This document shows, one piece after another, positions 2,447-36,428 of a stretch of DNA of 64,000 bases; position 1 is the first letter of the stretch, and every line of letters begins with the position of its first letter. Source of the DNA: Klebsiella phage iPHaGe-KPN-11i. The DNA is taken from sequence record OR637327.1; one strand, written 5' to 3'. The notes beneath the pieces were generated by a model that worked only from the letters and a program-made list of their open reading frames with translations, did no database searches and was not told the origin of the DNA. The translations under genes were made by a program, and so were the position numbers.

Positions 2447-3167
2447 CAAGGCGCTAACCTACGACGAAAAGTTATTCATTATCGAAAACTTCCATGAAGG
2501 TGCATTTACGAATAACTCTGAACTGGGCGCATTCTTTACCCCGATCGGACTTGCTCGCGATTTCACTATTGATGCTTGTACCAGTGGAAGCGTTGTTGAC
2601 CTGTGCGCGGGTATTGGTGGGCTATCCTTCGCGATGCTTCACATGATGATGTACGCCAAACCGCGTGAAATCGTCTGTGTTGAGTTAAACCATACATACT
2701 ATAAGTTGGGTAAGCGTATCGTACCGGAAGCGACCTGGATTAACGCAGACGCGTTAACGACGGAGTTTGATACTCTGTTTGATATGGCGATCAGCAATCC
2801 ACCTTTCGGTAAGATAAAGACATCCGATTTTAAGGGTAAGTATACGGGCGCGGAATTTGAATATAAAGTGATTGAACGTGCTTCACAGATTGCCCGTGCG
2901 GGTACGTTCATTCTCCCGCAGATGTCCGCGAATTTCCGTTACTCTGGACGGCGTTATTTCCAACAGGACGAATCAACGACAACATCGAAATGCAAAAAGT
3001 TTCTTGATGAAACTGGCCTTGAAATGCAACCTGGTTGCGGCATTGATACCGGATACTATCTGGAGGAATGGAAAGGCGTGAAGCCGATGTGTGAAGTTGT
3101 CTGTATGGAATTCCCTGAACCGGAGCCAGAACCCGCGCAAAACCTTTTCACTTTCACAATAGAGTAA
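2382..3167 (+). CDS. class I SAM-dependent methyltransferase (amino-MTase family, NPPF motif; DNA N6-adenine or RNA N2-guanine)
   Basis: Motif I VVDLCAGIGGLS and motif IV ISNPPFGK are present. The true start may be the internal ATG near 2427. Confidence 0.65.
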   Translation: MAKLTKAETKQHNKIMDLVESDKALTYDEKLFIIENFHEGAFTNNSELGAFFTPIGLARDFTIDACTSGSVVDLCAGIGGLSFAMLHMMMYAKPREIVCVELNHTYYKLGKRIVPEATWINADALTTEFDTLFDMAISNPPFGKIKTSDFKGKYTGAEFEYKVIERASQIARAGTFILPQMSANFRYSGRRYFQQDESTTTSKCKKFLDETGLEMQPGCGIDTGYYLEEWKGVKPMCEVVCMEFPEPEPEPAQNLFTFTIE

Positions 3168-3172
3168 AGACT

Positions 3173-3667
3173 ATGAGCGATCAATTAATCAAAAACATGG
3201 ATTTAACCTACAGTGTGCGAATGATTCGCCTACTGAAAAAACCCTGGACTGAATGGACGGCTTACAAGCTGGGGATCATCGACGGTCAAGGCGAAGTAAT
3301 CAAGAACCCGAAGACGAAGGAAGAACTGGAAGCATATTCCCCGTTCCATCGCTCTGTAAGGCACATCAAGCGCCGTTTAAACGCGGTTCCTTATATGTCT
3401 GGGTTCATGAACCTTACGAGCGCGTATGACTCGCTACGGAACCGCTGGAACCTGACCGAGCAAGAGCACGAAGAAATCATGATGAACCTCCCAGAACTTC
3501 GCGAAAGACTCAACGAAGAAATGGTTGCAGGTGATTCAGGCGGAAGTGTAGATAACATTGCTTCGGGTGTGACTACAGGCGCGATCACGAACAAAGGGCC
3601 GAAGGTTCTGGGTTCTACGCGTCCATATAAACGCAAACGGAAGATCATGAAAAATGATACGGAATGA
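3173..3667 (+). CDS. hypothetical protein (basic C-terminus)
   Basis: A 164 aa ORF lying between the methyltransferase and the primase. Confidence 0.5.
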   Translation: MSDQLIKNMDLTYSVRMIRLLKKPWTEWTAYKLGIIDGQGEVIKNPKTKEELEAYSPFHRSVRHIKRRLNAVPYMSGFMNLTSAYDSLRNRWNLTEQEHEEIMMNLPELRERLNEEMVAGDSGGSVDNIASGVTTGAITNKGPKVLGSTRPYKRKRKIMKNDTE

Positions 3668-3815
3668 CCTTGAGCGGTTGCCTATTCGCGAAATCGAAAA
3701 GCGGATCGAGAACATGAAAGGCATTTTAGAAAAATATCCGTATATGCAGGGCATTGTCGTTTATATTGAACGGCTACGCGCTGCAAGGGCATCCAAGATA
3801 GGAAGGAAGAAATGA
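3654..3815 (+). CDS. small ORF (53 aa), translationally coupled
   Basis: It is not in the ORF track because of the 60 aa cutoff. It bridges a gap with ATGA overlaps at both ends. Confidence 0.35.
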   Translation: MIRNDLERLPIREIEKRIENMKGILEKYPYMQGIVVYIERLRAARASKIGRKK

Positions 3816-4033
3816 AACCATTACCGCCATTGAATTATCGGATCTGGGTTACTGCGAACAATTACACCTGGTTTCCGATCCGTATCAAGTACATGAGCGA
3901 CACAGCGATCGTGTACACGAACGAAAGAAAATTTGCGCCGCGTGTCGATATTCCTAGACCTTATCCGTTTGATAAGATATTCTGTGAATGGAAAATCACT
4001 TTAGACGGCACAGAGAAAGAAGTTAGCCGATAG
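3812..4033 (+). CDS. hypothetical protein
   Basis: A 73 aa ORF. Confidence 0.4.
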   Translation: MKPLPPLNYRIWVTANNYTWFPIRIKYMSDTAIVYTNERKFAPRVDIPRPYPFDKIFCEWKITLDGTEKEVSR

Positions 4034-4041
4034 AGGTAAAC

Positions 4042-5067
4042 ATGTATCTTGATATAGAGTTCGCAACTCGTATCATGGGATCATTACCACAAAGCGAAAT
4101 CGTTCGACGGGGTGGGGAATTCAGTATCCATTCCCGTTGTCCGATTTGTGGCGACTCCATGAAGGATAAGCACAAAAAACGTTTTTGGATCTTTCCATCA
4201 AAACGAGGCACACACATGATGTGTGGTTGTTTTAACTGCAACTACAGCAAGCCGTTTTCTGTGTTTCTGAAAGATTATTACCCGGATGATTACACGGCGT
4301 ATTTGATGGAATCTTTCAAGGATCGTAAAGATTTAAAACAGACGCACGAAGAACCGCCGAAGGAAGAAAAGAAATATATTCCTGAATTGCAGTTCTGCGA
4401 ACGTCTGGACACGTTGCCAGAAAATCACCCTATCGTTAAGTATGTTGCAGGTCGTCACATACCTAAAGACAAATATGATCGCCTCTGGTTTACGCGTCAA
4501 TGGCAACACCTGGTTAACTCTGTGAATGCGGACGCATACCCTTTACCGAAGGATGAACCGCGTTTGGTGATCCCTATCTTTGATGCTAAGGGCAAAATCG
4601 AATCATTCCAGGGACGCGCCTTGCGTGACAATGCCGCAGCCAAATACATGACAATCAAAGCGTGTGAGCACTCAACGAAAGTATATGGTCAAGATACCAT
4701 CGATCCGTTGAAACCTGTCTACCTGCTTGAAGGGCCGCTGGATAGCCTGTTTGTAGATAATGCTGGGGCGATTACGGGCGGACAAATGGCGTTGTCTGAC
4801 GTTCCGTATAAAAATATGCGTGTCTGGGTTCTTGACAATGAACGACATCATCCAGATACTACTCACCGCCTTTTAAAATTGATTGAGGCTGGCGAAAAGG
4901 TTGTGTTGTGGGACAAATGCCCGTGGCCGTCAAAAGATATCAACGAAATGATAAAAACTGACGGCGCAACTAAACTTGAAATCATGCAGTATTTGAAAGA
5001 GAATACTGTTTCTGGACTCACGGCGAAACTTCGGTTTAAGTCGTGGGACAAATCACCGAAAAAATGA
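4042..5067 (+). CDS. 61: DNA primase (T4 gp61-like)
   Basis: An N-terminal zinc ribbon CPICGDS...CGCFNCNY is followed by a Toprim-like region. It matches the T4 gp61 pattern and position. Confidence 0.9.
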   Translation: MYLDIEFATRIMGSLPQSEIVRRGGEFSIHSRCPICGDSMKDKHKKRFWIFPSKRGTHMMCGCFNCNYSKPFSVFLKDYYPDDYTAYLMESFKDRKDLKQTHEEPPKEEKKYIPELQFCERLDTLPENHPIVKYVAGRHIPKDKYDRLWFTRQWQHLVNSVNADAYPLPKDEPRLVIPIFDAKGKIESFQGRALRDNAAAKYMTIKACEHSTKVYGQDTIDPLKPVYLLEGPLDSLFVDNAGAITGGQMALSDVPYKNMRVWVLDNERHHPDTTHRLLKLIEAGEKVVLWDKCPWPSKDINEMIKTDGATKLEIMQYLKENTVSGLTAKLRFKSWDKSPKK

Positions 5068-23715: not shown

Positions 23716-23987
23716 CACACGACGAAGCCATGAAAGCCGCTACACGCGGTTTTAAAGTCGCCCCTGTGGGTAAGGCTGGGTTCTTTGTATATCACAGCGT
23801 AGAGGCTGGTTTCCGGCGAATTACGATAGGGAACGTTGGATACTGGAACGATGAATATGTTCCGACACCTTACGAACTTATGCGCGTATGGGACATATAC
23901 GATAAAAGCCCGATGACGAAAGTAAAAGATTTCATCAATCGGGCTTTGAGTAGTTTGAAACTGAAATTATCATCGAATCCTGCCTAA
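23712..23987 (+). CDS. hypothetical protein
   Basis: A 91 aa ORF whose 3-prime end overlaps the convergent holin gene by 18 nt. Confidence 0.45.
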   Translation: MTHDEAMKAATRGFKVAPVGKAGFFVYHSVEAGFRRITIGNVGYWNDEYVPTPYELMRVWDIYDKSPMTKVKDFINRALSSLKLKLSSNPA

Positions 23988-24614
23988 AATTCTTGCGGCC
24001 TGATTGCACACGATCATTAACTTCGTATCGACGACTTCGGGCTTCTGTATATACCATTCCATTAGAATCGATCCAGAATAATAGTTTTCGAGATTGAAAT
24101 AAGGACAACTAAAGGTATATGCTACCGGAACAAGGTTTTTTGTTGGAAGATACGGGCTTGCAATATCTGAGATATAGTACAGCCCGTTTATATGTCTATT
24201 ATACTCTTCCGATGTCTTGTCTATAGGATAGCCACCCAGATTTTTCGGGTTAATCTGTTGCGGTAACTTCCCTTCATACGCAATTATATCAACAAAATAA
24301 TTGACATTCTTAGGTCTGAACCCAAAGATTGCCGAAAAATCCGCACCCGTAGTTAAATGCACTATGTTTAACTGTTCGATGGATGCGGATTCAAACTTTT
24401 TTGCCTTTTCAATATCCATCGTCGGCACGTCTATAACGCTTGAAGATGTTTTCCAGACTGAAAATAAGTCATCCCACTTGTACCATGTTACAAACATAAT
24501 GAAAATAGTGACGATAAGAACCAATTTAATGAATAACTGTTTCCATGTTTTGACCGCCATGATGAACGATATTACCCGTTCAAGCACCGCCAATTTATCT
24601 TGTAATAGCGACAT
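23970..24614 (-). CDS. t: holin (T4 t-like)
   Basis: It is colinear with T4 T, sharing EQLxIVHxxxxADFSAxxxFRPKNxNYFVDIIAYEGKLP and CPYFNLxNxYxGxIxM. It has one N-terminal TM helix and a large periplasmic domain. Confidence 0.85.
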   Translation of the reverse strand: MSLLQDKLAVLERVISFIMAVKTWKQLFIKLVLIVTIFIMFVTWYKWDDLFSVWKTSSSVIDVPTMDIEKAKKFESASIEQLNIVHLTTGADFSAIFGFRPKNVNYFVDIIAYEGKLPQQINPKNLGGYPIDKTSEEYNRHINGLYYISDIASPYLPTKNLVPVAYTFSCPYFNLENYYSGSILMEWYIQKPEVVDTKLMIVCNQAARILGRIR

Positions 24615-24667: not shown

Positions 24668-25186
24668 TTAACGTTGAGTAACCAAACCAGAACGGTTTTG
24701 GCCTACACGGGCGTTTAGATAGTCATACCATGCGGTTGTTTGACCAGAAGAGATCTGATATTGACGATATCCGTCATGAACACGACCGTTATTATTGAAA
24801 TCAAATACGCCTCCGTCATCCATAGTAAGCCGTAAGTTAACAGCAGGGCCGTTTTGGATGGTGATTACGCTAATATCCGGGCCTGATTGCGCAGAAACTA
24901 CAGTACCGAACGCATTACCATTAAAACTACCACCGACCGCAGGATAACCAGAAGGTTTTGAATATGGCGAGTACCAACCAACCCCCCACTGACCACGATA
25001 ACGGGCGTTGTTATAGTAACGCTCATACACTGTAAAGTTGATGTTATAAACGGACTGACCCGCCATTCTGGACATCCAGAAGGGTAAACCGATTCGAACG
25101 GCATTACCAGCAGCAGACATCCACCGTTGTCCTGTTTCACCGACCGCAGACGATCCGATCCACCCAGGAACTCCTACAATAGCCAT
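24668..25186 (-). CDS. 38: gp38-type tail-fibre adhesin/assembly protein with a non-canonical C-terminus
   Basis: The N-terminal MAIVGVPGWIGSSAVGETGQRWMS matches the T2-type gp38 attachment domain. The C-terminal half is rich in Y/G/N/Q but lacks poly-Gly GRM motifs. Confidence 0.65.
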   Translation of the reverse strand: MAIVGVPGWIGSSAVGETGQRWMSAAGNAVRIGLPFWMSRMAGQSVYNINFTVYERYYNNARYRGQWGVGWYSPYSKPSGYPAVGGSFNGNAFGTVVSAQSGPDISVITIQNGPAVNLRLTMDDGGVFDFNNNGRVHDGYRQYQISSGQTTAWYDYLNARVGQNRSGLVTQR

Positions 25187-25212
25187 AAAAATACCTCATG
25201 AAAGAGGGGCAA

Positions 25213-27426
25213 TTAAGCCCCTAATTTGTTTTCGATTACTTCCAGACGTTCGCGGATTTCATTGATTGCGTTCACCAGAAGCGCGTTAATTGCAGACGGG
25301 GAGATCGTCAACATACCAGTATCGCGGTCTTCGCGTACTGCTTCCGGTAATACCTTTTCGACATCCTGAGCAATAAGACCGGATTCACGATGATATACGA
25401 TATCGTCTGCATCCTTAGATTGTTTATCGTAGATATAACCTTTAAGCTGTTCGACTTTTCTTAATGAATCTTTCAATTCAACAAGATTAGATTTCAGTCG
25501 AATATCGGAACGGATATAAACATCGTTAAAGTTAGCGTTACCTTCGATATACAGACCACGGTTCATGTATGTATCACCAGCACGTAATACTATAGCAGTA
25601 TTCAACCGATAGTTATGCATAGTTACTTCTTCATCAGCGCCACCAAATCCTATATACATGCCGTTGTTACCTGCTTTTTGAATAAGCATGTAACACGACG
25701 AGTTTATTGCTGGCCCATTCAATACCAACGCTGGCCCATCGGTATTTTGAACATAGAAACGCTTATATGATTGCGCAGAACCACCATCATTTGCTGTCCA
25801 ACGCATGATACGCTGGCTGTTAGAATAAGCATCAAGATAACCGTCACCTTCCTGTCGGAATCCGGTATCGTCATCACCCAAACAAATAGCGTTTCCGCCT
25901 AAACCGTTCCGAGTACCACAACCAAGACCACTGTTAAACCTTGCGGAACCAGGAACAACAAGACCTTGAGAGCCGACCGTTACCTGTCCGTTACTGTTGT
26001 CGACCTGGAAAGGTCGATGCCCATTCCAACCACCATACGGATCTCCCGAATTAGTCAACAGGAAATATGTGTTCGCGCCATCGTTTCGAATAAAGAACCC
26101 ATAGTTTCCAGCAACCGCGCGGAATTGACCACCGCCACCAGGAGATGCACTTTGAATCTCCGCACGGGCGCGAACATAACCATCGGTTGAAACCTGTAAT
26201 TCCTCTTCTTGGTCAGCAGAACCTGTTGCCAGTCTCCACAAACCACCCTGAACAGTTTCATGCCAGATAATGTCTCCGTTACCGCCACGGAACTGACGCA
26301 AATAGTTTTTAGCACCAGTTGTTCCGCCAGATAAGAAATATTGCGCTGGGATATTCTGAGGAACATCATTATAATATGATTGAACGTTGATGCTAATACC
26401 GCCTTTAGTGTTGATAAACAAACCACCAGTACCACGAATATAATGATTATATAGTCCATTGCTATCTTTATAACCAAAGTGAGTAGCACCATCACCAACC
26501 GCGTTTCCATCACCGCTTGTATCAACACGAAGAATTGATGTGTTCGCCCCTTGTGTAGCGTAATCAGCCCCAACATTCATTCTGCCATTAAACGTCGCCT
26601 GGCCTGTAAATGTTGAAAGACCAGGAACGGTTAGATGGTTTGCGAGAAGCAAAGTTCCATCAGAAGCAAAACGACTTGCATAAGCACCACCACCAGATCG
26701 AACATACACGTTCTTCCCTGTATCTGCATAAATCAAACCAAGTTCGTTACCCGCAGAATCCTGGAAAAACAGGTTTCGGTTTCCGTCGCCTTTTGTGATC
26801 AGTTGGGTTCCTGTTAAGTCACCAATGACCTTTGTACTCATACCAACGTTTAACGAAGCACCGGAAAGGTTAATTGAACCATCCCAGCCATTAAGCCCAA
26901 TCTGAGCGCGTAGAATGCCCGTAGCGCCTGTTGTCTTGTTTGGTGCATCATATGCTTGCAGTTCGATAGAACCCGCCCCAGTAGTTGCCTGGTGCGATAA
27001 TAGAGCAGCAAGGTTAGCACCGCCAGCAGGATCGGAAGTATTCGATTTTGTGTTGACAAACAAAGTAAACGTGCGCGTATGCTGTGACGGGAACGGATTT
27101 GTAACCGCGTTGTTATCTGAACGAGTAGTTAACAGATAAGGAGCATTCCCCGCAGTATCAGCAACCAGGTTAATACGACGAGGAACCGTTAACTGGGTGT
27201 TGTTCTTTAATGTCAGATTACCCGTCATTTCGTCGCCAGCTTTCTTCACCTGTGCATCATTCGTTACGTTGCCTAATCCGATTTCTGCCTTTGTTGGCTT
27301 ATCGTTTTCGGTGTATACTTTATAGCCTTTGTATGTGATTGTGTTTCCAGAAGGGAGCAAAGGCAAGTTAGCCTGACTCCAGATAGTATTACCGCCAACG
27401 GTAGTACCTGCTTTTAAATCTGCCAT
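25213..27426 (-). CDS. 37: distal long tail fibre protein B (gp36-like N-terminus fused to a gp37-like shaft, with a C-terminal S74 intramolecular chaperone)
   Basis: It has an N-terminal MADLKAGTTVGGNTIW (gp36-type), a KNYLRQFRGGNGDIIWHETVQGG patch shared with gp34 and gp37, and a C-terminal DVYIRSDIRLKSN...GLIAQDVEKVLPEAV auto-cleaving chaperone domain. A late promoter TATAAATA lies upstream. Confidence 0.8.
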   Translation of the reverse strand: MADLKAGTTVGGNTIWSQANLPLLPSGNTITYKGYKVYTENDKPTKAEIGLGNVTNDAQVKKAGDEMTGNLTLKNNTQLTVPRRINLVADTAGNAPYLLTTRSDNNAVTNPFPSQHTRTFTLFVNTKSNTSDPAGGANLAALLSHQATTGAGSIELQAYDAPNKTTGATGILRAQIGLNGWDGSINLSGASLNVGMSTKVIGDLTGTQLITKGDGNRNLFFQDSAGNELGLIYADTGKNVYVRSGGGAYASRFASDGTLLLANHLTVPGLSTFTGQATFNGRMNVGADYATQGANTSILRVDTSGDGNAVGDGATHFGYKDSNGLYNHYIRGTGGLFINTKGGISINVQSYYNDVPQNIPAQYFLSGGTTGAKNYLRQFRGGNGDIIWHETVQGGLWRLATGSADQEEELQVSTDGYVRARAEIQSASPGGGGQFRAVAGNYGFFIRNDGANTYFLLTNSGDPYGGWNGHRPFQVDNSNGQVTVGSQGLVVPGSARFNSGLGCGTRNGLGGNAICLGDDDTGFRQEGDGYLDAYSNSQRIMRWTANDGGSAQSYKRFYVQNTDGPALVLNGPAINSSCYMLIQKAGNNGMYIGFGGADEEVTMHNYRLNTAIVLRAGDTYMNRGLYIEGNANFNDVYIRSDIRLKSNLVELKDSLRKVEQLKGYIYDKQSKDADDIVYHRESGLIAQDVEKVLPEAVREDRDTGMLTISPSAINALLVNAINEIRERLEVIENKLGA

Positions 27427-27452
27427 TATTAGATCCTCAAATGCTTTTATGA

Positions 27453-27460
27453 TATTTATA
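27453..27460 (-). promoter_or_regulatory. T4-type late promoter TATAAATA
   Basis: A perfect 8-mer on the - strand about 27 nt upstream of the fibre B ATG. It is preceded by the fibre A terminator hairpin (27466-27487). Confidence 0.7.
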
Positions 27461-27488
27461 AAAAGAAAAAGCCCCGAAGGGCTTTTAA

Positions 27489-29636
27489 TTAGCGGGATTT
27501 AAGTTCCCTGATTTCCTCACGAAGTTCTTTAATTGCGTTGACAAGCAAGGCAATAACCGCAGTCGGAGAAACCGTTAAGATTTCATTCCTTTCGGTGTCT
27601 TCACCAGTTTTAACCGCTTCCGGTAATACTTCGCGCAGTTGTTGTGCAATCAAACCAGCTTCGCGGGACGTAGGTTCACCGCCGACATGATCCGCTTTAT
27701 CATAGATCACACCATCCAACAAATCAACTTTATCCAGCGCAGTTTCGATCTTACTGAAATTACTTTTCAGTCTTTCATCAGAACGAATATAAACATCGTT
27801 GAAGTTGCCATTACCAGATGCAGTAAATTGACCGTTACCATCAAAGAGATAATATGCACCGCTTTCGAGAATCAATCGGATGCGAGCTTGTGCGCCATCA
27901 TTATTTGGAATATGCGCATCCATAGCAGCAACATGAGTTGCTCCCCATACGCTAGCTTTCCAGATGTTATATGCTGAGGTAGCACCGTTAGGCATATCGA
28001 TCTGTAAACCAGAGGAACGGTCACGCCACTGATCCCAGCCACCACCATCAGGAGTACCACGAATCAACGCAAAATCAGTACCCGTACAAGGACCACCGCT
28101 ATAGATCATACCACCTCGGAAATCCCAAGTGGTCTGACGAACGTTATTTGTTCGAATGTGGTATTGTCCGTTAGCCTCAGCCCATGTAACCGCCTTTTCA
28201 ACGCCATTAAGCAAACGATACCAAACGACACTGATATCGTTTGCATCAAGGAATATGTTTGATGAACCACCCTGAGCACCGCTCAGTGTTAAACCACCAG
28301 CGCTAGTAAGGGTGAACAATTCAGCAGAGTCTGTATCACCTGTTGCTAAACGATACGTGCCGCCCTGAACAGTTTCATGCCAGATCTGGTCTCCATTACC
28401 ACCACGGAAACGACGAAGATAATTCTTCGAACCTGTTGCGGTTGTGCTTAATGCAGAGGAACAATAAACGTTCTGGTTCAAGCCGTCCTGGTTGATTGTC
28501 CCTGTTACAACACCTCCTGTATTTTTAAAGAACAAATCATCAATCCATCCAGAAAATCCTACTTTATTGATATACACGTTTCCGTCATACGCAAAAACAC
28601 CACCGCCTTGCGTTTTAAGCGGTTGAGAAATAGGTGCCAGTGTTAAAACACCACTCATGGTATCTCCAGCTTTGTTTACTGCCCCTACTTCTGCCGGAGT
28701 TGGCGGAGTAGCAGTATCATAAATCCGTCGCCAACCATTAGCGTCGCCAGCAGACCAAGACCAAGCACCAGGAGAACCAGAACCGCTTCGAATCCATGAT
28801 GAATTTGTGTCATAGTAAGTTTGAACCAGTGATACACCACTATTCAACGTGCGTCGATATGTCGAAACCTGACCAGAATATGTAGTGTTACCATAAGGTC
28901 CATCGATCACGTTACCACCAACTGACAGAACATCGTTCTTTTCGGTTACAACAGCAGCACCAAAACTGTTTCCCTGCATACTGCGAGGAATACCCGTGAT
29001 ATAACGGTTATCGTGGTTTGTCCAATTAGTAGGAGTTACCGTATTAGCAGTAATTGCCCCGCTTACGTTTAACGCGGTTGCACTCACCGCAGCGAAGGTC
29101 GATGATCCGGCTACACGGAAAGAACCTAGTTCAACGGATACCTGCTGATTCGCAGAGTCAACAACAATGGAAGTATTTGATGTTCCGTTTTTGTATGCGT
29201 TCAGATAGATCCTATTACCACCATCAGCACGGGCGTTAATATTCAGAGTTGCCAACGTAACACCGGAAGCATTAACCCCAGTGATTTGCATAATGCCCTG
29301 TTCGGTTGAAGGTGTTCCCGTCACATCAGAACGTTTAAACAATATACCCGGAGCAGCCCCGCCCGTGGTGATATCGACATAACTTTTTGAATACAGCGTG
29401 TTCGCTGTTAAGTTAATACCTACGGTCACGCTTTGGTTGAACGTGGTGTTCTTCGCAACAGTACCGCCGTTGATCGTCGAGAGGGCGTTTATATCCTCCG
29501 CTGTTGGACGATCGTTTTCGGTGTATACTCTCCACCCTTTATACGTCAATCTGTCGCCAGAGGGCAGCAGAGGGAGGTTTGACGCACTCCAGATACCCGC
29601 ACCACCCAGCGTTGTACCTAATTTCAAATCAGCCAT
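27489..29636 (-). CDS. 37: distal long tail fibre protein A (paralog; gp36-like N-terminus, gp37-like shaft, C-terminal S74 intramolecular chaperone)
   Basis: It has an N-terminal MADLKLGTTLGGAGIW, a KNYLRRFRGGNGDQIWHETVQGG patch, and a C-terminal DVYIRSDERLKSN...GLIAQQLREVLPEAV. The central receptor-binding region differs from fibre B. Confidence 0.8.
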   Translation of the reverse strand: MADLKLGTTLGGAGIWSASNLPLLPSGDRLTYKGWRVYTENDRPTAEDINALSTINGGTVAKNTTFNQSVTVGINLTANTLYSKSYVDITTGGAAPGILFKRSDVTGTPSTEQGIMQITGVNASGVTLATLNINARADGGNRIYLNAYKNGTSNTSIVVDSANQQVSVELGSFRVAGSSTFAAVSATALNVSGAITANTVTPTNWTNHDNRYITGIPRSMQGNSFGAAVVTEKNDVLSVGGNVIDGPYGNTTYSGQVSTYRRTLNSGVSLVQTYYDTNSSWIRSGSGSPGAWSWSAGDANGWRRIYDTATPPTPAEVGAVNKAGDTMSGVLTLAPISQPLKTQGGGVFAYDGNVYINKVGFSGWIDDLFFKNTGGVVTGTINQDGLNQNVYCSSALSTTATGSKNYLRRFRGGNGDQIWHETVQGGTYRLATGDTDSAELFTLTSAGGLTLSGAQGGSSNIFLDANDISVVWYRLLNGVEKAVTWAEANGQYHIRTNNVRQTTWDFRGGMIYSGGPCTGTDFALIRGTPDGGGWDQWRDRSSGLQIDMPNGATSAYNIWKASVWGATHVAAMDAHIPNNDGAQARIRLILESGAYYLFDGNGQFTASGNGNFNDVYIRSDERLKSNFSKIETALDKVDLLDGVIYDKADHVGGEPTSREAGLIAQQLREVLPEAVKTGEDTERNEILTVSPTAVIALLVNAIKELREEIRELKSR

Positions 29637-29658
29637 AAAAATTTCTCCTATAATGACT

Positions 29659-29666
29659 GTATTTAT
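29659..29666 (-). promoter_or_regulatory. late promoter-like ATAAATAC (7 of 8)
   Basis: It lies upstream of fibre A and after the terminator hairpin aaaggggcgaaagcccctttt. Confidence 0.45.
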
Positions 29667-29687
29667 GAAAAAGGGGCTTTCGCCCCT

Positions 29688-31280
29688 TTATCTCACGATT
29701 GACAGTTTAACGTCTTTAGCCGATACCGTACCGATGTTTGTGTTGTTTGGATAACGGTATAAACCGAAATCAAACGTAACAGCACCAGCAGGAATAACCC
29801 CTTCGTTTTTATAGAATGAATATACGTTAGGAATCGTACCAACATCACGCATGTTGATCCCTGAAATATACGTATTATTCGCGTCCCAGAACTGCATTAA
29901 GATATATGCGCCTTTATTGTTGGCGATTGCGTTTGCATCGCGTTTCATTTGGCATTGCATACGGATCGTATCACCAGCTTTTAAGCCATAACTGCTTAGT
30001 GATGCTTTTGTTACCGCCTCTTGCTGGGTAGCAGTCCATTCTTTGAACTGGTACTCCGCTGTATTTGTCGAAGTGTATTCAACCGGATCAGAAACAATAT
30101 AATCAAGTTCAGCAAAGTTATGCGAAATGATTTTCTTATCACTTGCAACACCAGTAGGCGAAACGGGTAGAGAAAGCAATTTATCAATCGGGTTCTCATT
30201 TCCGCTTGCGTCCACTTCGGAAAGTGTCTGCATTCGAACACCGTTCACACCAAGCGCAGCACCATTCCGGTTTATTTCTTCGCGAGGTACTTTTGCGATC
30301 TGGACGTTGCGACATTGCGCCAGCCCCACTTTAACGGTAGACGGATAATGATATACCTGCGAACCCATTTTGGTGTTTACCGGATCTGACGGAACAGTGA
30401 AATATCCTGATAATGAATGCCACTGATCGGGGGCTAATCCAGTTGTTCGAAGAATGGTTGATGTGATCCATTGTCCGGTACTGTTTTCAGTCCACATATA
30501 CAGGTGAACTTCCCCCCCTGCATCACGAAGTTCTTGCGAACAATATAGTTCACCCGTGAATTTGAAGATATCACCCAGAAAAACATCACTACCAACAATC
30601 CACGTCCCGTAAGAGTGGAAGCCATAAAGATCCCCGCTATTCTGGTATGTCTGGACATCATCGACCATTCTTTCTGGAATACCAGTTACCCCGATATCAC
30701 TGAATTCATCAAACACAACTTCAACAAAACTCGTCGTATTGTCTTTCAGGCTACCAGCACCACCGACAAAGTTTTCCATGCAAATCTTTTTCATCGTAGA
30801 TGAATAGATAGCTGAATAGGATGAACGGTGAGAATAATTGGTTGTGGTGATCGGGATATTAAAGAACCGAGTTTCAGGCCACGCAACAGAACCTATTTTC
30901 CTCATTGTTGCTAAAAAGTCATCGTCACTTTTGATAGCATCGAAAGTATAAAAACACACAATTCTGTTCGCTGGAAGTGAATTCAGGTAGTCTTTAATCG
31001 CATTCCCGTTCGTAGCAGGATCACCATACATATCGAATGCCTTGTAATCCAATAATGCTAAAGTTGTTCCATCAATGACAGCCAGGTTAATTCCGCGAGC
31101 AGCTTGTGTTCGTCTGTTTATAATATCAGCCCCGTTAATAGATACCTCAACCGAGTTGACCGCAGAATCGTTATTCGTTCCACGGACAACAAGGCGATAT
31201 TTCACGGCGTTTGCTTCTGAAAACACATTCGCCGTGAAACTATCAGGGCCGAATAACGCCATAAATTCGTTATTCGCCAT
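29688..31280 (-). CDS. putative tail-fibre hinge/connector protein (gp35 positional analogue, 530 aa)
   Basis: It is located between gp34 and the distal fibre genes, as gp35 is in T4. No recognisable similarity to T4 gp35 was seen. Confidence 0.35.
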   Translation of the reverse strand: MANNEFMALFGPDSFTANVFSEANAVKYRLVVRGTNNDSAVNSVEVSINGADIINRRTQAARGINLAVIDGTTLALLDYKAFDMYGDPATNGNAIKDYLNSLPANRIVCFYTFDAIKSDDDFLATMRKIGSVAWPETRFFNIPITTTNYSHRSSYSAIYSSTMKKICMENFVGGAGSLKDNTTSFVEVVFDEFSDIGVTGIPERMVDDVQTYQNSGDLYGFHSYGTWIVGSDVFLGDIFKFTGELYCSQELRDAGGEVHLYMWTENSTGQWITSTILRTTGLAPDQWHSLSGYFTVPSDPVNTKMGSQVYHYPSTVKVGLAQCRNVQIAKVPREEINRNGAALGVNGVRMQTLSEVDASGNENPIDKLLSLPVSPTGVASDKKIISHNFAELDYIVSDPVEYTSTNTAEYQFKEWTATQQEAVTKASLSSYGLKAGDTIRMQCQMKRDANAIANNKGAYILMQFWDANNTYISGINMRDVGTIPNVYSFYKNEGVIPAGAVTFDFGLYRYPNNTNIGTVSAKDVKLSIVR

Positions 31281-31285
31281 TTAAA

Positions 31286-34200
31286 TTATTCCTCCCACAC
31301 AAATTCACAAGTCTTAGTTGTTGGATTTGCGAAGATTTTTACGTTTCCGATTTTGATGTAATCACGAACAACCAGAGTATCTACAGTTGAACCCGCAACC
31401 GCAACCGCCCCAATTTCTGCCGGAGTTGGTTTACGACCTGCATGATAGATCAGGTTTCCGTTGATCATCGCTTTGTTGTAATCGGTGATATTGATATTGA
31501 ATTCAGTCAATACCTTATCGTCAATGCCAGTTAAGCGCATCTTCTGGACGTTACCAGAGAAATCACCCGCCTGAACATGTGCCGTACCGCTCACACTGGT
31601 AAAGCGTCCACCCGTGCCGTTTACGCTAACTGACAGCGCACCAGTCATAGTATCACCCGCTGTATTGACATAGGTACTGTCAAGATGCTGGGTAAAGTTT
31701 CTGGTGTTGATTACGGTTGCAGTAGTCACGCCGTTATCATTACTGATTGTTACGCCGTTCCAACCGTTAGTTGCATCGGTTCGTAATTGTACCGTAGGAC
31801 TTGCATCACTTGCAATAGTCACATCACCTGTTGCGTTCGTGTTAGCCAGTGCTTTACCATTCAGGCGCAGAGTAGTACCGGAGTACGCCATTGTACCGTT
31901 AGATACATCACCAACAGTCAGAACGTCGGTCGTGTCGGTTGTGCCAGTTGCCAAGCGATACGTAGTTCCCTGAACAGTTTCATGCCATGTAGTATCCGTC
32001 ACACCGCCACGGAAAGTACGAAGCAAGTTTTTAGTTCCAGCGGTTGCTGTACTCAAAACAGTATTAGCATAAACCGTGTTTGCTTTCGCAGACTGGCTAA
32101 TGTTATTGTTCGTGGTTACGGTGTTGTTAACAGTTACCGCAGCGTTAGCCGTCAGAGTCCCGTTAGTGGTTACTTTACCAACGAAGTTGCTTGTACCGTT
32201 GAACGTGTTGTTGCCCGTTACGGTTTGATCTGCATCACGACGCATCCAGCTTGCAGCTACCACACCGCCCAGTTTCAGGCTATTCTGTGCTGTTGCGTTC
32301 AACGGTAAGAAGTTTTGCAGAGCAAAGTTCAGACCGCGAGGCGATACAGCGTAGAAATCTTCCAGATAGCTATCTACAGGCTGAGTAGAACCAACCAGAT
32401 TATCACCGATGAACGTGTTCGATTTGGTAGTGATAAACACCGCACCACGGCGCAATGTTGTAGCACCCCATGCCGGATCAGTACCGTTCAAGAACTGCAT
32501 GGTAGCCGGAGTAATTGCCAGGTTAGTAGCAGTACCCGCAGCAGCTTCGCTGTTGGTTGCACAACGAATGATACCTTCGGCGGTATCCGTCGCTTTCTTC
32601 GCTTGCAGTTTCTTAGGCGTGATGACCACGTTATCCAGAGTACCCGCATCAGTTTCGCCCTGAGTCGCTACGCGCAGAGTACCACGCTGTGTTTCAGTAG
32701 CAGACGCAATCCCCAGGTTAACCGTTGTCCAGATAGTACCGGACTGAGTTAAACCATCAGTGGTAGCAACCGCAACATGACTCGTAACGTTGAAGAACTC
32801 TTTCAGCTTAACCGGAACAACTGCCTTATTCGTTGCCGTACCTGCTGCAACTTCCGCAGTGGTAGCGAGGGCAATAATACCATCAAGCGATTCAGTAGCC
32901 TTGCGATCGTTCAGCTTCTTAGGCGTCACCGCACGGAGATCATCGGTTCCTGTGTTCGTTTCGTCCTGAGTTGCGATCTCAATCAAACCGATACGCGATT
33001 CAGTAGACGTTTTACGATGGAGCATTTCAGGAGTTACTACGATCGGCATTGAAGCAGATCCAGCAGCAGCACCAGTTACCACTTCGTTTTCGGTCGCCAG
33101 AACAACCAGACCTTTTGACTTTTCGGTCGCCGTCTTCTCGTTCAATGATTTCGGAGTCAGTAAGTCAACACCGTTATTGAAGTTGTAGACGTTAGTACCA
33201 GCATCCCCACGTAAAGCCCCCTCCGCTGTCGTAGCGCCCGTTGTAACGAGTTTCCCGATACCTGCTAGGGTTTCGGTCGCGCGGCGCGTGTCGAGCTTCT
33301 TAGGCGTGATTGCGGTAGTGTCATCAGTACCAGCGTTTGTTTCTGCCTGAGTTGCAATTTCCAGAACACCACGGCGATCTTCTGTTGCTGTACGTTCGTT
33401 AAACTTTTTAGGCGTAACAATTACGTCATCCAAAAAAGTAGCCGTAGTGTTCTGGTTAACTTCCGCAGTTGTTGCCAGACGAGCGATACCACGGCGTGTT
33501 TCCGTAGCAGTTTTATTCGCCAGTGTACGCGGGGTTACTGCCAGTTCATCAGAAGGCAAATCTTCCCAGTTTTTGTTTACTTCTGCCTGTGTAGCCAGCG
33601 CGATCACACCCAGACGAGAACGGTTTGTTGGATCAACACGTTCAATGATCGGGCGATATTGTGCAACTACCCATTCTTTCGTAGCTTTCAGATACGACAA
33701 TTCTATATATGGAAGATAGTCAGTATCGGCGTTGAAAGTCAGAGTGTCAACACTGAACCAGTCATCAGGTGGATAATCCTTACGCTGTGGGAACTGCATC
33801 ATGTTTTTGTTGGTGCGGATCTTTTCACCGGAATCATCTTTAACTTTGATTGTGCAGTTCTGCGTTTTCCCCATCATATACATACTGATATACACGCGAT
33901 CACCTTCGGCAACATCTTGCGGAAGAGTCAGCGTTACGTTACGCACAGTTGGAGGACTACCAGCGATCGGGGTGATAAACACGTAATCGTTCGGCAACAT
34001 GTTCAGGTCATCACTGATACGACGCAGACGAACGCGCTGATCACCATCATAAACGACCCAGCGGCTATTAGCCTGATCGAACATGAAGATACCATAACCG
34101 GAACGCTGTGAAGTCACAGAAGTTACGTTGTTGATACCGTCATAGCTGATCGTGTGTCCGCTACCAGGATAAACTTGCAGAGTCGCAACGTTCACCGAAG

Positions 34201-34945
34201 CAAGGCGATCCAGATCGTAAGTTGTGATTGAGTCACCATCGTTTGCGTATCTAGGCAATTGCAGAGTAATCTTGCCTGTACCGCTATTACGGAATGTTAC
34301 CATACCCGCTTGCAGTTGGAAAGAACCCGCACCTGTTGCGTTCACAAACTGCGAATCGCGGTTATCGCGCATTTCAGAAACACGCCATAAGTTGCCGTTA
34401 AAAATAAACGCAACAGTCATATATGGGTGAGTCAGTCGATAAGAGCTTGACTGAATATCACGCAAACGGATCTGTCTGGTGTTTGAACGAACCAAAAGGT
34501 TGTTGAGACCTGCAAGACCGCCACCGTCTTTAATGGTGATAATATCACCCTCAACAGGGGAATCTGGTAGAATATATGTCAGTTCAGAGAAACGACCATC
34601 AGCCAGTAAGTACGTACCGGATTCAACAGGGAGACCGTCAGTGCTCGTTACGTTGTTATATACCCATTTTGGATCGTTACGGGTTGAGATCCATTTTGTT
34701 TCATCGAAAGCACCCGCTGGTGATGGAATATCTGCGCGAGCGTACCAAATACGACGCGCGTACATGATAGCCATAAACGCAGCATAGCCACGGGTAGAAT
34801 CGTATTGTTGGATCGTGTTAAATTCGTTAAAAAAGTCAACGTTCACGCCGTCGCTCAACACAGAGCGGGATGCTTTACCAACGTTGATAACTTTTTCGCC
34901 AGCAGCATCAAGGCCACTTGTGGCGCGGAATGATTTAGCTACCAT
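31286..34945 (-). CDS. 34: proximal long tail fibre subunit (gp34)
   Basis: It is colinear with T4 gp34, including RGYAAFMAIMY near the N-terminus and ETRRGIARLATTAEVNQNTTATFLDD repeats. The C-terminal FVWEE matches the gp34 end. Confidence 0.9.
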   Translation of the reverse strand: MVAKSFRATSGLDAAGEKVINVGKASRSVLSDGVNVDFFNEFNTIQQYDSTRGYAAFMAIMYARRIWYARADIPSPAGAFDETKWISTRNDPKWVYNNVTSTDGLPVESGTYLLADGRFSELTYILPDSPVEGDIITIKDGGGLAGLNNLLVRSNTRQIRLRDIQSSSYRLTHPYMTVAFIFNGNLWRVSEMRDNRDSQFVNATGAGSFQLQAGMVTFRNSGTGKITLQLPRYANDGDSITTYDLDRLASVNVATLQVYPGSGHTISYDGINNVTSVTSQRSGYGIFMFDQANSRWVVYDGDQRVRLRRISDDLNMLPNDYVFITPIAGSPPTVRNVTLTLPQDVAEGDRVYISMYMMGKTQNCTIKVKDDSGEKIRTNKNMMQFPQRKDYPPDDWFSVDTLTFNADTDYLPYIELSYLKATKEWVVAQYRPIIERVDPTNRSRLGVIALATQAEVNKNWEDLPSDELAVTPRTLANKTATETRRGIARLATTAEVNQNTTATFLDDVIVTPKKFNERTATEDRRGVLEIATQAETNAGTDDTTAITPKKLDTRRATETLAGIGKLVTTGATTAEGALRGDAGTNVYNFNNGVDLLTPKSLNEKTATEKSKGLVVLATENEVVTGAAAGSASMPIVVTPEMLHRKTSTESRIGLIEIATQDETNTGTDDLRAVTPKKLNDRKATESLDGIIALATTAEVAAGTATNKAVVPVKLKEFFNVTSHVAVATTDGLTQSGTIWTTVNLGIASATETQRGTLRVATQGETDAGTLDNVVITPKKLQAKKATDTAEGIIRCATNSEAAAGTATNLAITPATMQFLNGTDPAWGATTLRRGAVFITTKSNTFIGDNLVGSTQPVDSYLEDFYAVSPRGLNFALQNFLPLNATAQNSLKLGGVVAASWMRRDADQTVTGNNTFNGTSNFVGKVTTNGTLTANAAVTVNNTVTTNNNISQSAKANTVYANTVLSTATAGTKNLLRTFRGGVTDTTWHETVQGTTYRLATGTTDTTDVLTVGDVSNGTMAYSGTTLRLNGKALANTNATGDVTIASDASPTVQLRTDATNGWNGVTISNDNGVTTATVINTRNFTQHLDSTYVNTAGDTMTGALSVSVNGTGGRFTSVSGTAHVQAGDFSGNVQKMRLTGIDDKVLTEFNINITDYNKAMINGNLIYHAGRKPTPAEIGAVAVAGSTVDTLVVRDYIKIGNVKIFANPTTKTCEFVWEE

Positions 34946-34976: not shown

Positions 34977-34984
34977 TATTTATA
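34977..34984 (-). promoter_or_regulatory. T4-type late promoter TATAAATA for gene 34
   Basis: A perfect 8-mer on the - strand about 32 nt upstream of the ATG. Confidence 0.7.
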
Positions 34985-34986
34985 AA

Positions 34987-35016
34987 CAAAAAGGCGACCA
35001 TCAAGTCGCCTTTTTC
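34987..35016. terminator. bidirectional hairpin terminator (the stop codon of the upstream gene lies in the loop)
   Basis: aaaaaggcgacCATCAAgtcgccttttt; T runs are present on both strands. Confidence 0.6.
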
Positions 35017-36428
35017 TCACGGTAATTGTTCAGCCAATCTTTAACAATCGCGTGATGAAGAGGATCTGCAAAATCAAGTTTGTGTTTCTTCTTATACCAG
35101 TTGAAAGCGTTTATTTCCGGCGCTGTCATTTGGAAAAGAGATTGAAACGATTTGCGTTGCCTTTTCGTTTGAACTGCTTCTGTGGTTTCGATAATGGCAT
35201 CAGGAAAATATTTTTCCTTCATGTATTTCGCTAACCGCATATCAGGCACAAATAAATTAATCTTTCGTTTGCTGTTGTTGTGTCGGATATCAGAACGAGC
35301 ACATAACTGAAAGGCTGGTTCGTAATATTTACTGACAACATAAGCATCAACTAATTCTTCCTCTTCAAGTCCAGAGGACACCGCAACCGCTCGCAACATT
35401 TGACGAAGCCAGGGTAACGGGTTGTAACTGAATAATGCCACCACGTTAGTATAACTTGAATAGAAGTTCAATCCATGCGAGTTATACGGGATTTCCTGCC
35501 CCTCGCTAAACTTCGATCTGTATGTGTTGGTGCAATAGATGAACTGTTCGCCCCCTAAAAGCGCCTCCACGCGTTTTTTAATCTGAGTGTATACTGTCGT
35601 CCCAGATTGAGAGAGATCGCCCGTATAACGCGAATAATCCCCCTCTGCGAGCACATGTATATGTATGCGCCCAGTGTTTTTGTATTGCTTAAAGTCAACC
35701 AGCTTTTGAAGCGGTGAATCTTTGAACTCCACATCATGAAACGTTTGCAGGATCTTCCCTGTAATTGTGTCTTTGATGTTGGATGAAGCAATGGTTACAT
35801 TTTTGAACTTCCACTGGCTTACGTCATGATCCTCTACGAAGTAACAGACATATCCCGAATCGCTACATTGCATCTTCACCGGAATAGCCCCTAACAGAGC
35901 ACGGTAAAGCGGGAACATCTTCATTGCGATATCATCACGTTTACGAAGACCATCATAGGCTAATCGTGTAACCAGTTCTCGTTTTTCTTCGTCAAGTTTT
36001 AAATCAACGATATCATCGGCATTGCAACTAAACGGCAAGCAAATCTCGCGTATGTGCTTGATATTGCTATTAAATCGCAGACTTTCGAACGCAACCAAAT
36101 CAGGAACTTCGTCAATGTACAGGGAAAAATCCTTATACAAATCAAAGTCATCAATGTTTTTGAGTGCTGCATGAGTGATAAAGATCACATCATAATCTTT
36201 GACAACCTCACGCAGCGAGTCATTGTTGGTTCTTTTGGTTCGGTGATCCGTGTCCACAATCACCGCTCGTTTCCCTTTTACCTGGTTGATGTAGTAGTCA
36301 TAAGACTGTTTTGATAACATCATGGAAATCGATGCGATGATTGCTTTTTCGCCCGTTTGATTGATATGGTTCAGAATCGCCTTTGTTTTACCACTTGACG
36401 GAACACATTCAATCGTATTAAAGATCAT
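35001..36428 (-). CDS. P-loop NTPase (helicase/ATPase-like) hypothetical protein
   Basis: A Walker A PSSGKTKA and a Walker B LYIDEVPD are present. The protein is 475 aa long and no further family could be assigned by eye. Confidence 0.5.
   Translation of the reverse strand: MIFNTIECVPSSGKTKAILNHINQTGEKAIIASISMMLSKQSYDYYINQVKGKRAVIVDTDHRTKRTNNDSLREVVKDYDVIFITHAALKNIDDFDLYKDFSLYIDEVPDLVAFESLRFNSNIKHIREICLPFSCNADDIVDLKLDEEKRELVTRLAYDGLRKRDDIAMKMFPLYRALLGAIPVKMQCSDSGYVCYFVEDHDVSQWKFKNVTIASSNIKDTITGKILQTFHDVEFKDSPLQKLVDFKQYKNTGRIHIHVLAEGDYSRYTGDLSQSGTTVYTQIKKRVEALLGGEQFIYCTNTYRSKFSEGQEIPYNSHGLNFYSSYTNVVALFSYNPLPWLRQMLRAVAVSSGLEEEELVDAYVVSKYYEPAFQLCARSDIRHNNSKRKINLFVPDMRLAKYMKEKYFPDAIIETTEAVQTKRQRKSFQSLFQMTAPEINAFNWYKKKHKLDFADPLHHAIVKDWLNNYREKKAT

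Follow-up and report, generated by a model that had tools for sequence, protein, structure and literature searches.

The stretch of DNA analyzed here (the window) comprises 64,000 nucleotides of Klebsiella phage iPHaGe-KPN-11i (OR637327.1) and carries an ordinary long-tail-fiber module of an RB43/RB16/GAP161-like Pseudotevenvirus (Straboviridae, T4-type). Its genes run in the order gp34, gp35, fiber A, fiber B, gp38, and the four minus-strand reading frames picked out by an earlier sequence-only reading of this DNA (A, B, gp38, and the gene in the gp35 position) are confirmed at the coordinates below.

23970..24614, minus strand: holin t, the downstream edge of the fiber module (Pfam Phage_holin_T, E 2e-55)
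24668..25186, minus strand: gp38 adhesin, RB43 type, 172 aa, with a docking N-domain and a small beta-sandwich C-domain
25213..27426, minus strand: fiber B, 737 aa, 'gp37' in annotations, whose gp36N::gp37 fusion ends in a chaperone domain
25216..25509, minus strand: B intramolecular chaperone domain, aa 640-737, Peptidase_S74 (PF13884, S640...K645)
25519..25728, minus strand: B tip before cleavage, aa 567-636, matching Pfam gp37_trimer, with GNANFNDVYIR at its end
27160..27426, minus strand: B hinge-docking N-terminus, aa 1-89, gp36-like by homology to T4 gp36
27427..27488, minus strand: A-B spacer with a terminator-like hairpin, a TATAAATA putative late-promoter motif, and a GAGG ribosome-binding site
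27453-27460, minus strand: perfect TATAAATA, 26 nt upstream of the B start
27467-27486, minus strand: terminator-like hairpin of the A-B spacer, with TATAAATA directly after it
27489..29636, minus strand: fiber A, 715 aa, 'gp36' in annotations, whose gp36N::gp37-like fusion ends in a chaperone domain
27492..27782, minus strand: A intramolecular chaperone domain, aa 619-715, Peptidase_S74 (PF13884, S619...K624)
27783..28334, minus strand: A tip, aa 435-618, of the T6/RB10 class of gp37, with GNGNFNDVYIR at its end
29421..29636, minus strand: A hinge-docking N-terminus, aa 1-72, gp36-like by homology to T4 gp36
29637..29687, minus strand: gp35-A spacer with a GC hairpin and T-run (terminator-like), CATAAATA (29660-29667), and a GGAG ribosome-binding site
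29688..31280, minus strand: gp35 of the hinge (knee cap), 530 aa, comprising all of a T4-type gp35 and an extra C-terminal CBM-like domain
29691..30104, minus strand: the second, extra CBM-like domain of gp35, aa ~393-530, identified with hhalign
31286..34945, minus strand: gp34, proximal half-fiber, 1219 aa, 46% identical to T4 gp34 over 972 aa and annotated gp34 in GAP161 and RB16
34977-34984: TATAAATA upstream of gp34, a motif read in the sequence

Relatives of the module and its hinge protein

The sequence-only reading took this locus to be noncanonical, a view that we reject because the A-B junction is routine in close relatives: 60 of 62 related phage records share the two-gene layout, with fiber A missing from 2 of the 62. 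Over its full length, the locus is 94.7% identical at the DNA level to Cronobacter phage GAP161, and there are 63 related records. RefSeq annotates two genes as 'long tail fiber protein distal subunit', and gp35, A, B, and gp38 all fall in named PHROGs, A and B both in phrog_5667. In RB16, the 'gp36' is 92% identical to A of the window, gp35 98%, and gp38 67%. A 183-kb metagenomic phage has the same order of gp35, A, B, and gp38, with twin N-termini and a gp38 that is 51% identical, so the design is old. The RB43 "g37 duplication, function unclear" was described by Trojet et al. 2011 (PMC3157838), who also showed the short gp38 to be the adhesin and treated its novel C-terminus and host-range mutants.

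No gp35 similarity had been noticed in the 530-aa protein, but it aligns with T4 gp35 by BLASTP (25% identity over 396 aa, E 2e-28), carries at aa 62-132 the Pfam ILEI domain that T4 gp35 also has, and covers the full length of PHROG 1154 ('long tail fiber protein proximal connector'). In a comparison of profiles (hhalign), its C-terminal extension matches T4-type gp35 with 97.2% probability (E 3.5e-11), landing on residues 219-317 of T4 gp35, a region that in T4 forms a CBM-like domain binding fibritin (bioRxiv 10.64898/2026.03.06.709160).

Two fused fibers, their signals, and gp38

Most of what had been proposed for the architecture of A and B stands. Both begin like gp36 (A, 47% identity over 72 aa, E 3e-20, against T4 gp36 1-72; B, 38% over 89 aa, E 3e-16, against T4 gp36 1-80), the gp34/gp37 patch is present in each (57-60% identity to residues 949-999 of gp34 of this phage, at 381-431 in A and 361-400 in B), and both end in a Pfam Peptidase_S74 domain (54.3 bits for A and 54.1 bits for B against a cutoff of 22) whose Ser-x4-Lys motif reads SDERLK or SDIRLK. 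Their central parts differ, as claimed, to the point that no alignment between them is found. The suggestion that these regions bind receptors fares less well, as both tips resemble those on which gp38 docks in known gp37 classes. With its chaperone domain, the A tip (aa 435-714) is 42% identical to RB10 gp37 735-1014 (E 2e-50), and the two proteins have the same mature C-terminus. For fiber B, an alignment with S16 gp37 extends across 506 aa (E 6e-21), B residues 435-500 match T4 gp34 1052-1116 (Pfam Gp34_trimer), and the B tip matches gp37_trimer (PF20744; E 7e-5, 23.2 bits against a cutoff of 21.7). In both fibers the mature C-terminus reads NFNDVYIR, followed by SD, as in T6-type, gp38-capped gp37, and [FA][NS]DVYIR before SD ends all 22 of the A and B fibers and likewise gp38-capped RB10 gp37.

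Also borne out was a gp38 joining a T2-type N-terminus to a different C-terminal part. Residues 1-42 form a T2/T6-type N-domain (Pfam Gp38_N, 75 bits) in which the docking tryptophans Trp9, Trp22, and Trp37, whose role is described in PMC6851490, are all present; the C-domain is unrelated to the poly-glycine sandwich of Pfam GP38, which is absent from it. A gp38 with a different N-domain pairs with a different gp37 end. Across relatives, gp38 and the B tip covary as one haplotype, whereas A tip classes do not follow gp38, which may mean that B alone is capped. Separately, the benefit of two fibers is hard to see if both carry the same gp38.

Intact reading frames (both genes in all 10 two-gene genomes read), purifying selection (dN/dS of 0.17-0.39 for A and 0.24-0.36 for B), and separate expression signals indicate that A and B are both functional. 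The A-B spacer is nearly invariant in 10 related genomes, and the 183-kb metagenomic phage retains both its hairpin, with compensatory changes in the stem, and TATAAATA. The perfect late-promoter motif attributed to B is indeed there, although TATAAATA is no more frequent in the window than chance predicts (3 found versus 2.05 expected), so that its promoter role is putative. Fiber A is preceded by CATAAATA rather than a perfect TATAAATA, in a gp35-A spacer that is nearly invariant in 12 genomes. In Fraggle and Taquito this is the only spacer before a single, essential fiber gene, which argues that the signals at the A position work.

These two phages have independently lost A by recombination between the paralogous 5' ends, which left chimeric N-termini: the Fraggle fiber is A-type over aa 1-42 and the Taquito fiber over aa 1-17, each being B-type thereafter. 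Both are viable phages with no separate A gene, and Taquito was picked for characterization as a phage-cocktail candidate. On this genomic evidence, A is shown to be dispensable and the A and B N-termini to be interchangeable. Fiber A is accessory; fiber B is kept in all relatives and is the sole distal fiber of Fraggle and Taquito. Yersinia phage JC221, with one gp36N::gp37-S74 fiber and a T6-type gp38, likewise implies that a single fused fiber is sufficient.

The two genes also exchange sequence. Their N-termini (73% identical over 44 aa in the window) share 68-86% of residues when taken from one genome, compared with only 45-66% between lineages, which points to concerted evolution. Tip modules shift between positions, the RB16 B tip being 46% identical to the A tip of the window and unlike its B tip. 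Among close relatives, the A tip is the most variable segment (dS 0.74 versus 0.10 elsewhere), a variability that we ascribe to imported DNA.

How the two fibers may be used

The best reading of these data, which we hold with about even confidence, remains the earlier suggestion that two alternative distal fibers are made: A and B would be distal half-fibers competing for one hinge site, yielding mosaic virions. Proteins gp36 and gp37, a pair in T4, form one fused chain in this clade: its gp36-type N-terminus docks where gp35 and gp34 make the knee, a shaft and a tip of the T2/T6/S16 type follow, and the chaperone domain is a self-cleaving Peptidase_S74. A tandem duplication has given two copies of the fused gene. 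Both copies would be expressed late, trimerize, shed their chaperone domains, and compete through near-identical N-termini, so that each of the six long fibers carries an A or a B distal half. The monomeric gp38 adhesin would sit on fiber B as its cap and recognize the receptor through its C-domain; A, with the same docking C-terminus, may be capped by the same gp38, or its fast-exchanging tip may be used directly. The conserved junctions, made up of the 3' chaperone domain, a spacer, and the 5' docking domain, would also serve as recombination linkers, allowing three variable cassettes, A, B, and the gp38 C-domain, to be swapped. In T4 the distal half-fiber is completed first, gp35 is then added to its free gp36 end, and the resulting complex is attached to gp34 (PMC9603124), an assembly order that fits alternative occupancy. 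What we infer from sequence is that both fibers enter virions, that A is capped, and that the host range may be dual; the literature that could be searched yielded no virion proteomics, electron microscopy, or genetics for A or B.

Trojet et al. 2011 (PMC3157838) allowed for expression of one copy alone or for mixed subunits. It is unlikely, in our estimate, that B with gp38 forms the working fiber by itself and A is little used, persisting mainly because its tip and shaft cassettes form a linked reserve for recombination, or serving only on particular hosts. The two viable losses of A would fit such an arrangement, as would the movement of tips between positions, the CATAAATA at A compared to the perfect TATAAATA at B, and the RB42/RB43 host-range mutations published so far, all of which map to gp38 (PMC3157838). 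However, A is intact wherever both genes were read, 60 of 62 records keep the junction, a distant lineage has the same layout, selection on A resembles that on B, and the spacer and ribosome-binding site of A drive the essential fiber of Taquito and Fraggle. A silent cassette would need no conserved docking N-terminus, chaperone domain, or promoter.

Branched receptor-binding assemblies are known in other phages, such as G7C, CBA120, and DT57C. A comparable knee holding A and B together, through two docking sites on gp35 or gp34 and with two tips per fiber, appears rather improbable here. The extra CBM-like domain of gp35 in this clade, missing in T4, could offer a second site, and A and B are conserved together in those 60 records and in the distant lineage; yet the domain is also complete in the single-fiber-gene phages Fraggle, Taquito, and JC221, and its T4 homolog binds fibritin, not gp36. 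N-termini as alike and interchangeable as these mark competition for one site, whereas known branched systems have distinct adaptor domains, and the RB43 fiber size is reported to fit a single gp37 trimer (PMC3157838).

That size also speaks against a serial fiber, with A standing in for gp36 and B for gp37 to give knee, A, B, and gp38 in one long distal half. Database annotations as gp36 and gp37 follow that positional logic, and the mature lengths (618 aa for A plus 639 aa for B, 1257 aa in all) come near the 1247 aa of T4 gp36 plus gp37. We nonetheless judge the scheme very unlikely: the B N-terminus is gp36-type, not gp37-type, and resembles that of A; A ends in a self-cleaving chaperone and a gp38-docking C-terminus like T6-type gp37, not in a gp36-type end; phages without A are viable; the mostly B-type N-terminus of the Taquito chimera must still bind the knee; and JC221 works with one fused fiber. 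Heterotrimers of A and B, for which their common N-terminus, gp34/gp37 patch, and chaperone domain would speak, are scarcely credible: the segments in between are unalignable and unequal in length (ahead of the patch, ~350 aa in A versus ~318 aa in B), the tips are of different classes, and a regular trimeric beta-structure built from chains so unlike is implausible.

Comparison with known fiber systems

The closest match is the RB43/RB16 locus (PMC3157838), which belongs to the same genus and has the same order of gp34, gp35, two long distal-fiber genes, and gp38, the last with 172-174 aa, a T6-like N-terminus, and an unrelated C-terminus. The window is otherwise another member of this group, differing in its B tip, which is of another class than that of RB16 and CfP1 (27% identity).

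A gp38 adhesin on a self-cleaving fiber had been thought absent from T2-type phages, but it is the standard T2/T6/S16 design (PDB 6F45; PMC3157838, PMC9569957): gp37 carries a self-cleaving C-terminal chaperone and a monomeric gp38 cap, and in RB10 and S16 a gp37 with Peptidase_S74 is followed by gp38. The window shares with this design the chaperone domain, the mature end GNGNFNDVYIR of RB10 gp37, and the three gp38 docking tryptophans (PMC6851490). It departs from it in having gp36 fused to gp37 rather than separate, in the duplication of the fused gene, and in a small beta-sandwich gp38 C-domain in place of the poly-glycine sandwich. JC221 (Straboviridae, unclassified genus) shares the fused gp36N::gp37-S74 fiber and a long gp35 (524 aa, 40% identical, extra domain included), but it has a single distal-fiber gene and a classical 262-aa poly-Gly gp38.

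With T4 itself, the module has in common homologous gp34 and gp35 and the gp36 N-terminal docking segment. In contrast, gp37 of T4 forms a needle tip of its own and lacks an S74 domain, no second CBM-like domain is present in T4 gp35, and T4 gp38 is an unrelated assembly chaperone with no significant similarity to gp38 of the window.

The distal-fiber locus within the genus

Across the full stretch from 24.6 to 31.3 kb the window is 94.7% identical to Cronobacter phage vB_CsaM_GAP161, and the same stretch matched 63 phage records, all of them RB16/RB43-like Straboviridae, with hosts among Enterobacter, Cronobacter, Citrobacter, Klebsiella, and Escherichia. In RefSeq, the GAP161 genes are labeled gp34, "proximal connector," two entries of "long tail fiber protein distal subunit," "tail fiber adhesin," and holin. 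Taken together, these matches and labels place the phage in the genus Pseudotevenvirus. The open reading frames stood as first read, every one on the minus strand:

29688-31280, minus strand: gp35, 530 aa
27489-29636, minus strand: A, the upstream distal-fiber gene, 715 aa, called "gp36" in databases
25213-27426, minus strand: B, the downstream paralog, 737 aa, called "gp37" in databases
24668-25186, minus strand: gp38

This is the two-fiber layout of RB43: gp35, a fiber, a hairpin with the late-promoter-like motif TATAAATA, a second fiber, a short gp38, and holin, with twin gp36-like N termini. The sequence-only reading had taken the arrangement to be non-canonical and novel, but it is routine in close relatives; of the related phage records, 60 have the A-B junction and 62 that of gp35 with A, and RB43 was reported to carry "duplications of g37" of unclear function by Trojet et al. 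in 2011 (PMC3157838). All four proteins fall in named PHROG families, with A and B sharing one. The features of the locus are real but ordinary for the genus, and finding them amounts to rediscovery: the duplication and the unusual gp38 were published in 2011 and carry RefSeq annotation. The interest of the locus rests solely on the role of fiber A. As a separate observation, a 475-aa open reading frame directly upstream of gp34 (35001-36428, minus strand), a "hypothetical protein" conserved in relatives, opens with a GKT Walker-A-like motif and had no match in a Pfam search.

Two fusion fibers and one adhesin

Both fibers begin with sequence homologous to the N terminus of T4 gp36 (E 3e-20 for A and 3e-16 for B), both contain a short patch shared with gp34, and between their shared parts the two cannot be aligned, all as the sequence-only reading had described. 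The gp36-like portion covers only the N-terminal 72 to 89 aa, beyond which lie a gp37-like shaft and a Peptidase_S74 domain, a predicted self-cleaving intramolecular chaperone. Searching A and B with PF03903 (Phage_T4_gp36) gave no match, and that domain is still recognizable in the B fiber of a 183-kb metagenomic relative. Both genes are gp36::gp37 fusions rather than separate gp36 proteins of ~220 aa, and the database name "gp36" for A is purely positional. When the gp36-like N terminus was used as the query, the T4 gp36 chain was absent from the PDB sequence-search results, which leaves this docking segment with no structural template.

At the extreme C termini, PF13884 matched A at aa 619-676 (54.3 bits) and B at aa 640-698 (54.1 bits), against a curated cutoff of 22 bits, in agreement with the chaperone domains first proposed. 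The catalytic serine is followed five residues on by lysine, in SDERLK of A (S619, K624) and SDIRLK of B (S640, K645), and this Ser-x4-Lys motif is kept in 22 of 22 fibers from 12 genomes. By profile and motif, then, both are Peptidase_S74/endosialidase-type CIMCD proteins, with putative autoproteolytic release; processing of gp37 is documented in T2/T6 (PMC3157838).

The tips resemble two known classes of gp38-docking gp37. Residues 435-714 of A are 42% identical to the T6-type gp37 of RB10 (E 2e-50), and for B the alignment to S16 gp37 spans 506 aa (E 6e-21), with a further match to Pfam gp37_trimer. After cleavage, the mature C terminus of A would be GNGNFNDVYIR, the same as in RB10 gp37, and that of B GNANFNDVYIR; all 22 A and B fibers in the 12 genomes end in ...[FA][NS]DVYIR, followed at the cleavage point by SD. 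The resemblance of the A tip and mature end to a T6-type, gp38-capped gp37 weakens the idea that A carries its own receptor-binding head and works without gp38. A match between the A tip and a 70-kb Salmonella phage, where an internal fiber domain precedes a Tfa-type chaperone, was uninformative about gp38 docking.

The gp38 protein has the N-terminal attachment domain of the T2/T6/S16 type: Gp38_N (PF21721) matches aa 1-42 with 74.8 bits (cutoff, 25). A beta-helix with a poly-glycine sandwich bearing GRM/HVS segments (Pfam GP38, PF05268) was looked for and is absent, which bears out the earlier description of a T2-type start without poly-Gly. Tryptophans W9, W22, and W37 are all present, and the AF2 model has three short helices at residues 10-18, 23-29, and 38-41. 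In the S16 structure, three such tryptophans insert in pockets at the base of gp37 (PMC6851490). Trojet et al. described RB43 gp38 as 174 aa long, T6-like over its first ~50 aa and novel at its C terminus, and in RB42 and RB43 gp38 was shown to determine host range, since the host-range mutants carry Q100K/R in it; the same work reported that LPS core and OmpF are required (PMC3157838).

A classical metagenomic T-even-like contig (L018, 7957-8970 and 9001-9516) offers a contrasting pair. There, a classical separate gp36 and a gp37 with the mature end ...ASEFYLN, again followed by SD, precede a gp38 that joins an RB43-type C domain (83% identical) to a different, tryptophan-less N domain. This combination shows that the adhesin module moves between docking systems. 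The shared mature ends, the gp38 tryptophans, and the contrast with the tryptophan-less pair make both A and B look docking competent for gp38. Scanning IMG/VR with gp38 returned only two distant loci of different architecture, which were set aside. The gp38 gene covaries with B as a single haplotype, and the A tip classes do not track gp38. We considered W37Y in gp38 and an F-to-A change at the B base as a compensatory pair and rejected it, because the two changes are inherited together as one haplotype, and because Trp is kept alongside the Ala base in the 183-kb phage.

Loss of A and exchange of cassettes

Klebsiella phage Fraggle_ER53 and Enterobacter phage Taquito, the latter chosen for characterization as a phage cocktail candidate, have one distal-fiber gene together with gp38 and a full-length gp35. 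Both single genes are chimeras:

Fraggle_ER53 (L002), 2114-4336: single distal-fiber gene, A/B chimera, crossover after codon 42 (residues 1-42 A type, remainder B type)
Taquito (L003), 2114-4327: single distal-fiber gene, A/B chimera, crossover after codon 17 (residues 1-17 A type, remainder B type)

Fiber A is accessory. The different crossover points show that A was deleted twice, independently, by crossover inside the paralogous 5' ends. The same chimeras show the A and B N termini to be interchangeable in viable phages, and they show that B can dock directly at the knee, the gp35/gp34 hinge.

These deletions also bear on expression. The 62-nt A-B spacer contains a terminator-like hairpin with TATAAATA immediately after it, 26 nt 5' of the B start. 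The motif, first read as a late promoter for B, shows no enrichment in the window (3 copies versus 2.05 expected by chance). The spacer is, however, essentially invariant across ten related genomes, and a far more distant phage preserves both the hairpin, through compensatory changes, and TATAAATA. In Fraggle and Taquito the single fiber gene stands behind a spacer of the gp35-A type, which in the window holds the candidate start motif CATAAATA, and this position shows that the signals before A are sufficient to drive an essential fiber. No promoter motif of its own was found for gp38, which adjoins B. Separately, in the 183-kb phage the spacer that separates gp35 from the first fiber gene (L020, 3919-4064) contains two copies of a ~40-nt direct repeat, TCGAGATATCTCTTATAGTATTATAGAAATAACTCGATCA, around a GC-rich core.

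Within a genome, A and B share 68 to 86% identity over residues 1-44, versus 45 to 66% between the Pseudotevenvirus and 183-kb lineages, and just past those residues B orthologues share B-specific sequence. The two N termini therefore undergo concerted evolution, as would follow from a need to fit one common partner. The tips behave differently. Between near-identical phages the A tip is 74% identical versus 97% for the rest of A; because dS is raised too (0.74 in the tip versus 0.10 elsewhere), we attribute the divergence to imported DNA and reject positive selection by point mutation. The C-terminal 260 aa of RB16 gp37 (L004, 1760-4219), in the B position, are 46% identical to the window's A tip and 27% to its B tip; tip cassettes have therefore been swapped between the A and B positions. 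Conserved islands along the locus fall at the gene junctions (3' chaperone domain, spacer, and 5' docking domain), with variable cassettes between them.

Proposed alternative half-fibers and known designs

We propose that A and B are alternative distal half-fibers, a model to which we would give an even chance; the two-fiber idea of the sequence-only reading stays plausible. Both proteins would be made late and trimerize with the aid of their chaperone domains, which would then be cleaved off. The gp36-like end of each fiber would bind a gp35 monomer, as in the T4 assembly order (PMC9603124), and the complex would join the gp34 trimer, so that each of the six fibers holds either A or B, with gp38 capping B and possibly A. 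A broader version, which we advance more tentatively, is that virions of the whole genus are obligate mosaics in which two unlike half-fibers compete for one knee site, both capped through the same gp38 docking chemistry, while the junctions act as a cassette exchange system from which A can be shed by one homologous crossover. If so, a T4-type phage would gain two modes of receptor reach or specificity from one fiber scaffold. Searches of the literature turned up neither virion proteomics nor fiber electron microscopy for RB43, RB16, GAP161, or CfP1 relatives, and neither proteomics nor fiber imaging for the genus as a whole.

A reading in which the working fiber is B, with A mainly a cassette in reserve or for particular hosts, is in our judgment unlikely; the absence of A from two phages speaks for it, and the purifying selection on both genes (dN/dS of 0.17 to 0.39 for A and 0.24 to 0.36 for B) speaks against it.

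A branched knee carrying both fibers is a still more doubtful proposition, weakened by the features of gp35. The 530-aa protein, originally thought to lack gp35 similarity, is a clear gp35 homologue (25% identity to T4 gp35 over 396 aa, E 2e-28) that matches PHROG 1154 end to end (1-530), shares an ILEI/PANDER-like domain with T4 gp35, has CBM-like domains, and lies between gp34 and the distal fiber, as expected of the T4 knee cap. It also has an addition:

29691-30104, minus strand: second CBM-like domain of gp35, aa ~393-530, after a complete T4-type gp35

These extra ~140 C-terminal residues align with T4 gp35 219-317 (hhalign probability, 97.2%; E 3.5e-11). We considered them as a second fiber-docking site, which would favor branching, and rejected them as support for it, because the single-fiber phages Fraggle, Taquito, and Yersinia JC221 retain the domain and because the counterpart in T4 has the fibritin whisker as its partner (bioRxiv 10.64898/2026.03.06.709160). 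A serial A-B rod is improbable given the N-terminal identity of A and B, the T6-type end of A, the viability of A-less phages, and an RB43 fiber size reported to fit one trimer; heterotrimers mixing A and B chains we find barely credible.

Pseudotevenviruses already serve in therapeutic cocktails that target Enterobacter, Klebsiella, and Cronobacter. Whether their virions bear one or two kinds of distal fiber, and which fiber bears gp38, decide how host range is to be read and engineered. The A-less chimeras Taquito and Fraggle, beside two-fiber phages such as Nando or GAP161, are ready-made test material for the role of A.

A gp38 adhesin on a self-cleaving fiber, once thought unprecedented, is the normal T2/T6/S16 design: gp37 bears Peptidase_S74 in S16 and in RB10, where a 260-aa poly-Gly gp38 follows, and gp37 is cleaved and then gp38 capped in T2/T6 and "the vast majority of T-even-like phages" (PMC3157838; PMC9569957). 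A single fused fiber is a working design elsewhere, in Yersinia phage JC221, which has a gp35 of 524 aa, one 816-aa fused fiber, and a classical gp38. The 183-kb phage (L020, 2413-9522) repeats the layout of the window, with gp35, a fiber, the hairpin and TATAAATA, a second fiber, and gp38, at identities of just 51% for gp38 and 24% for gp35, and its twin N termini agree at 86% of their first 44 positions. With the same layout at such a distance, either the A/B duplication is old or the layout is strongly maintained.
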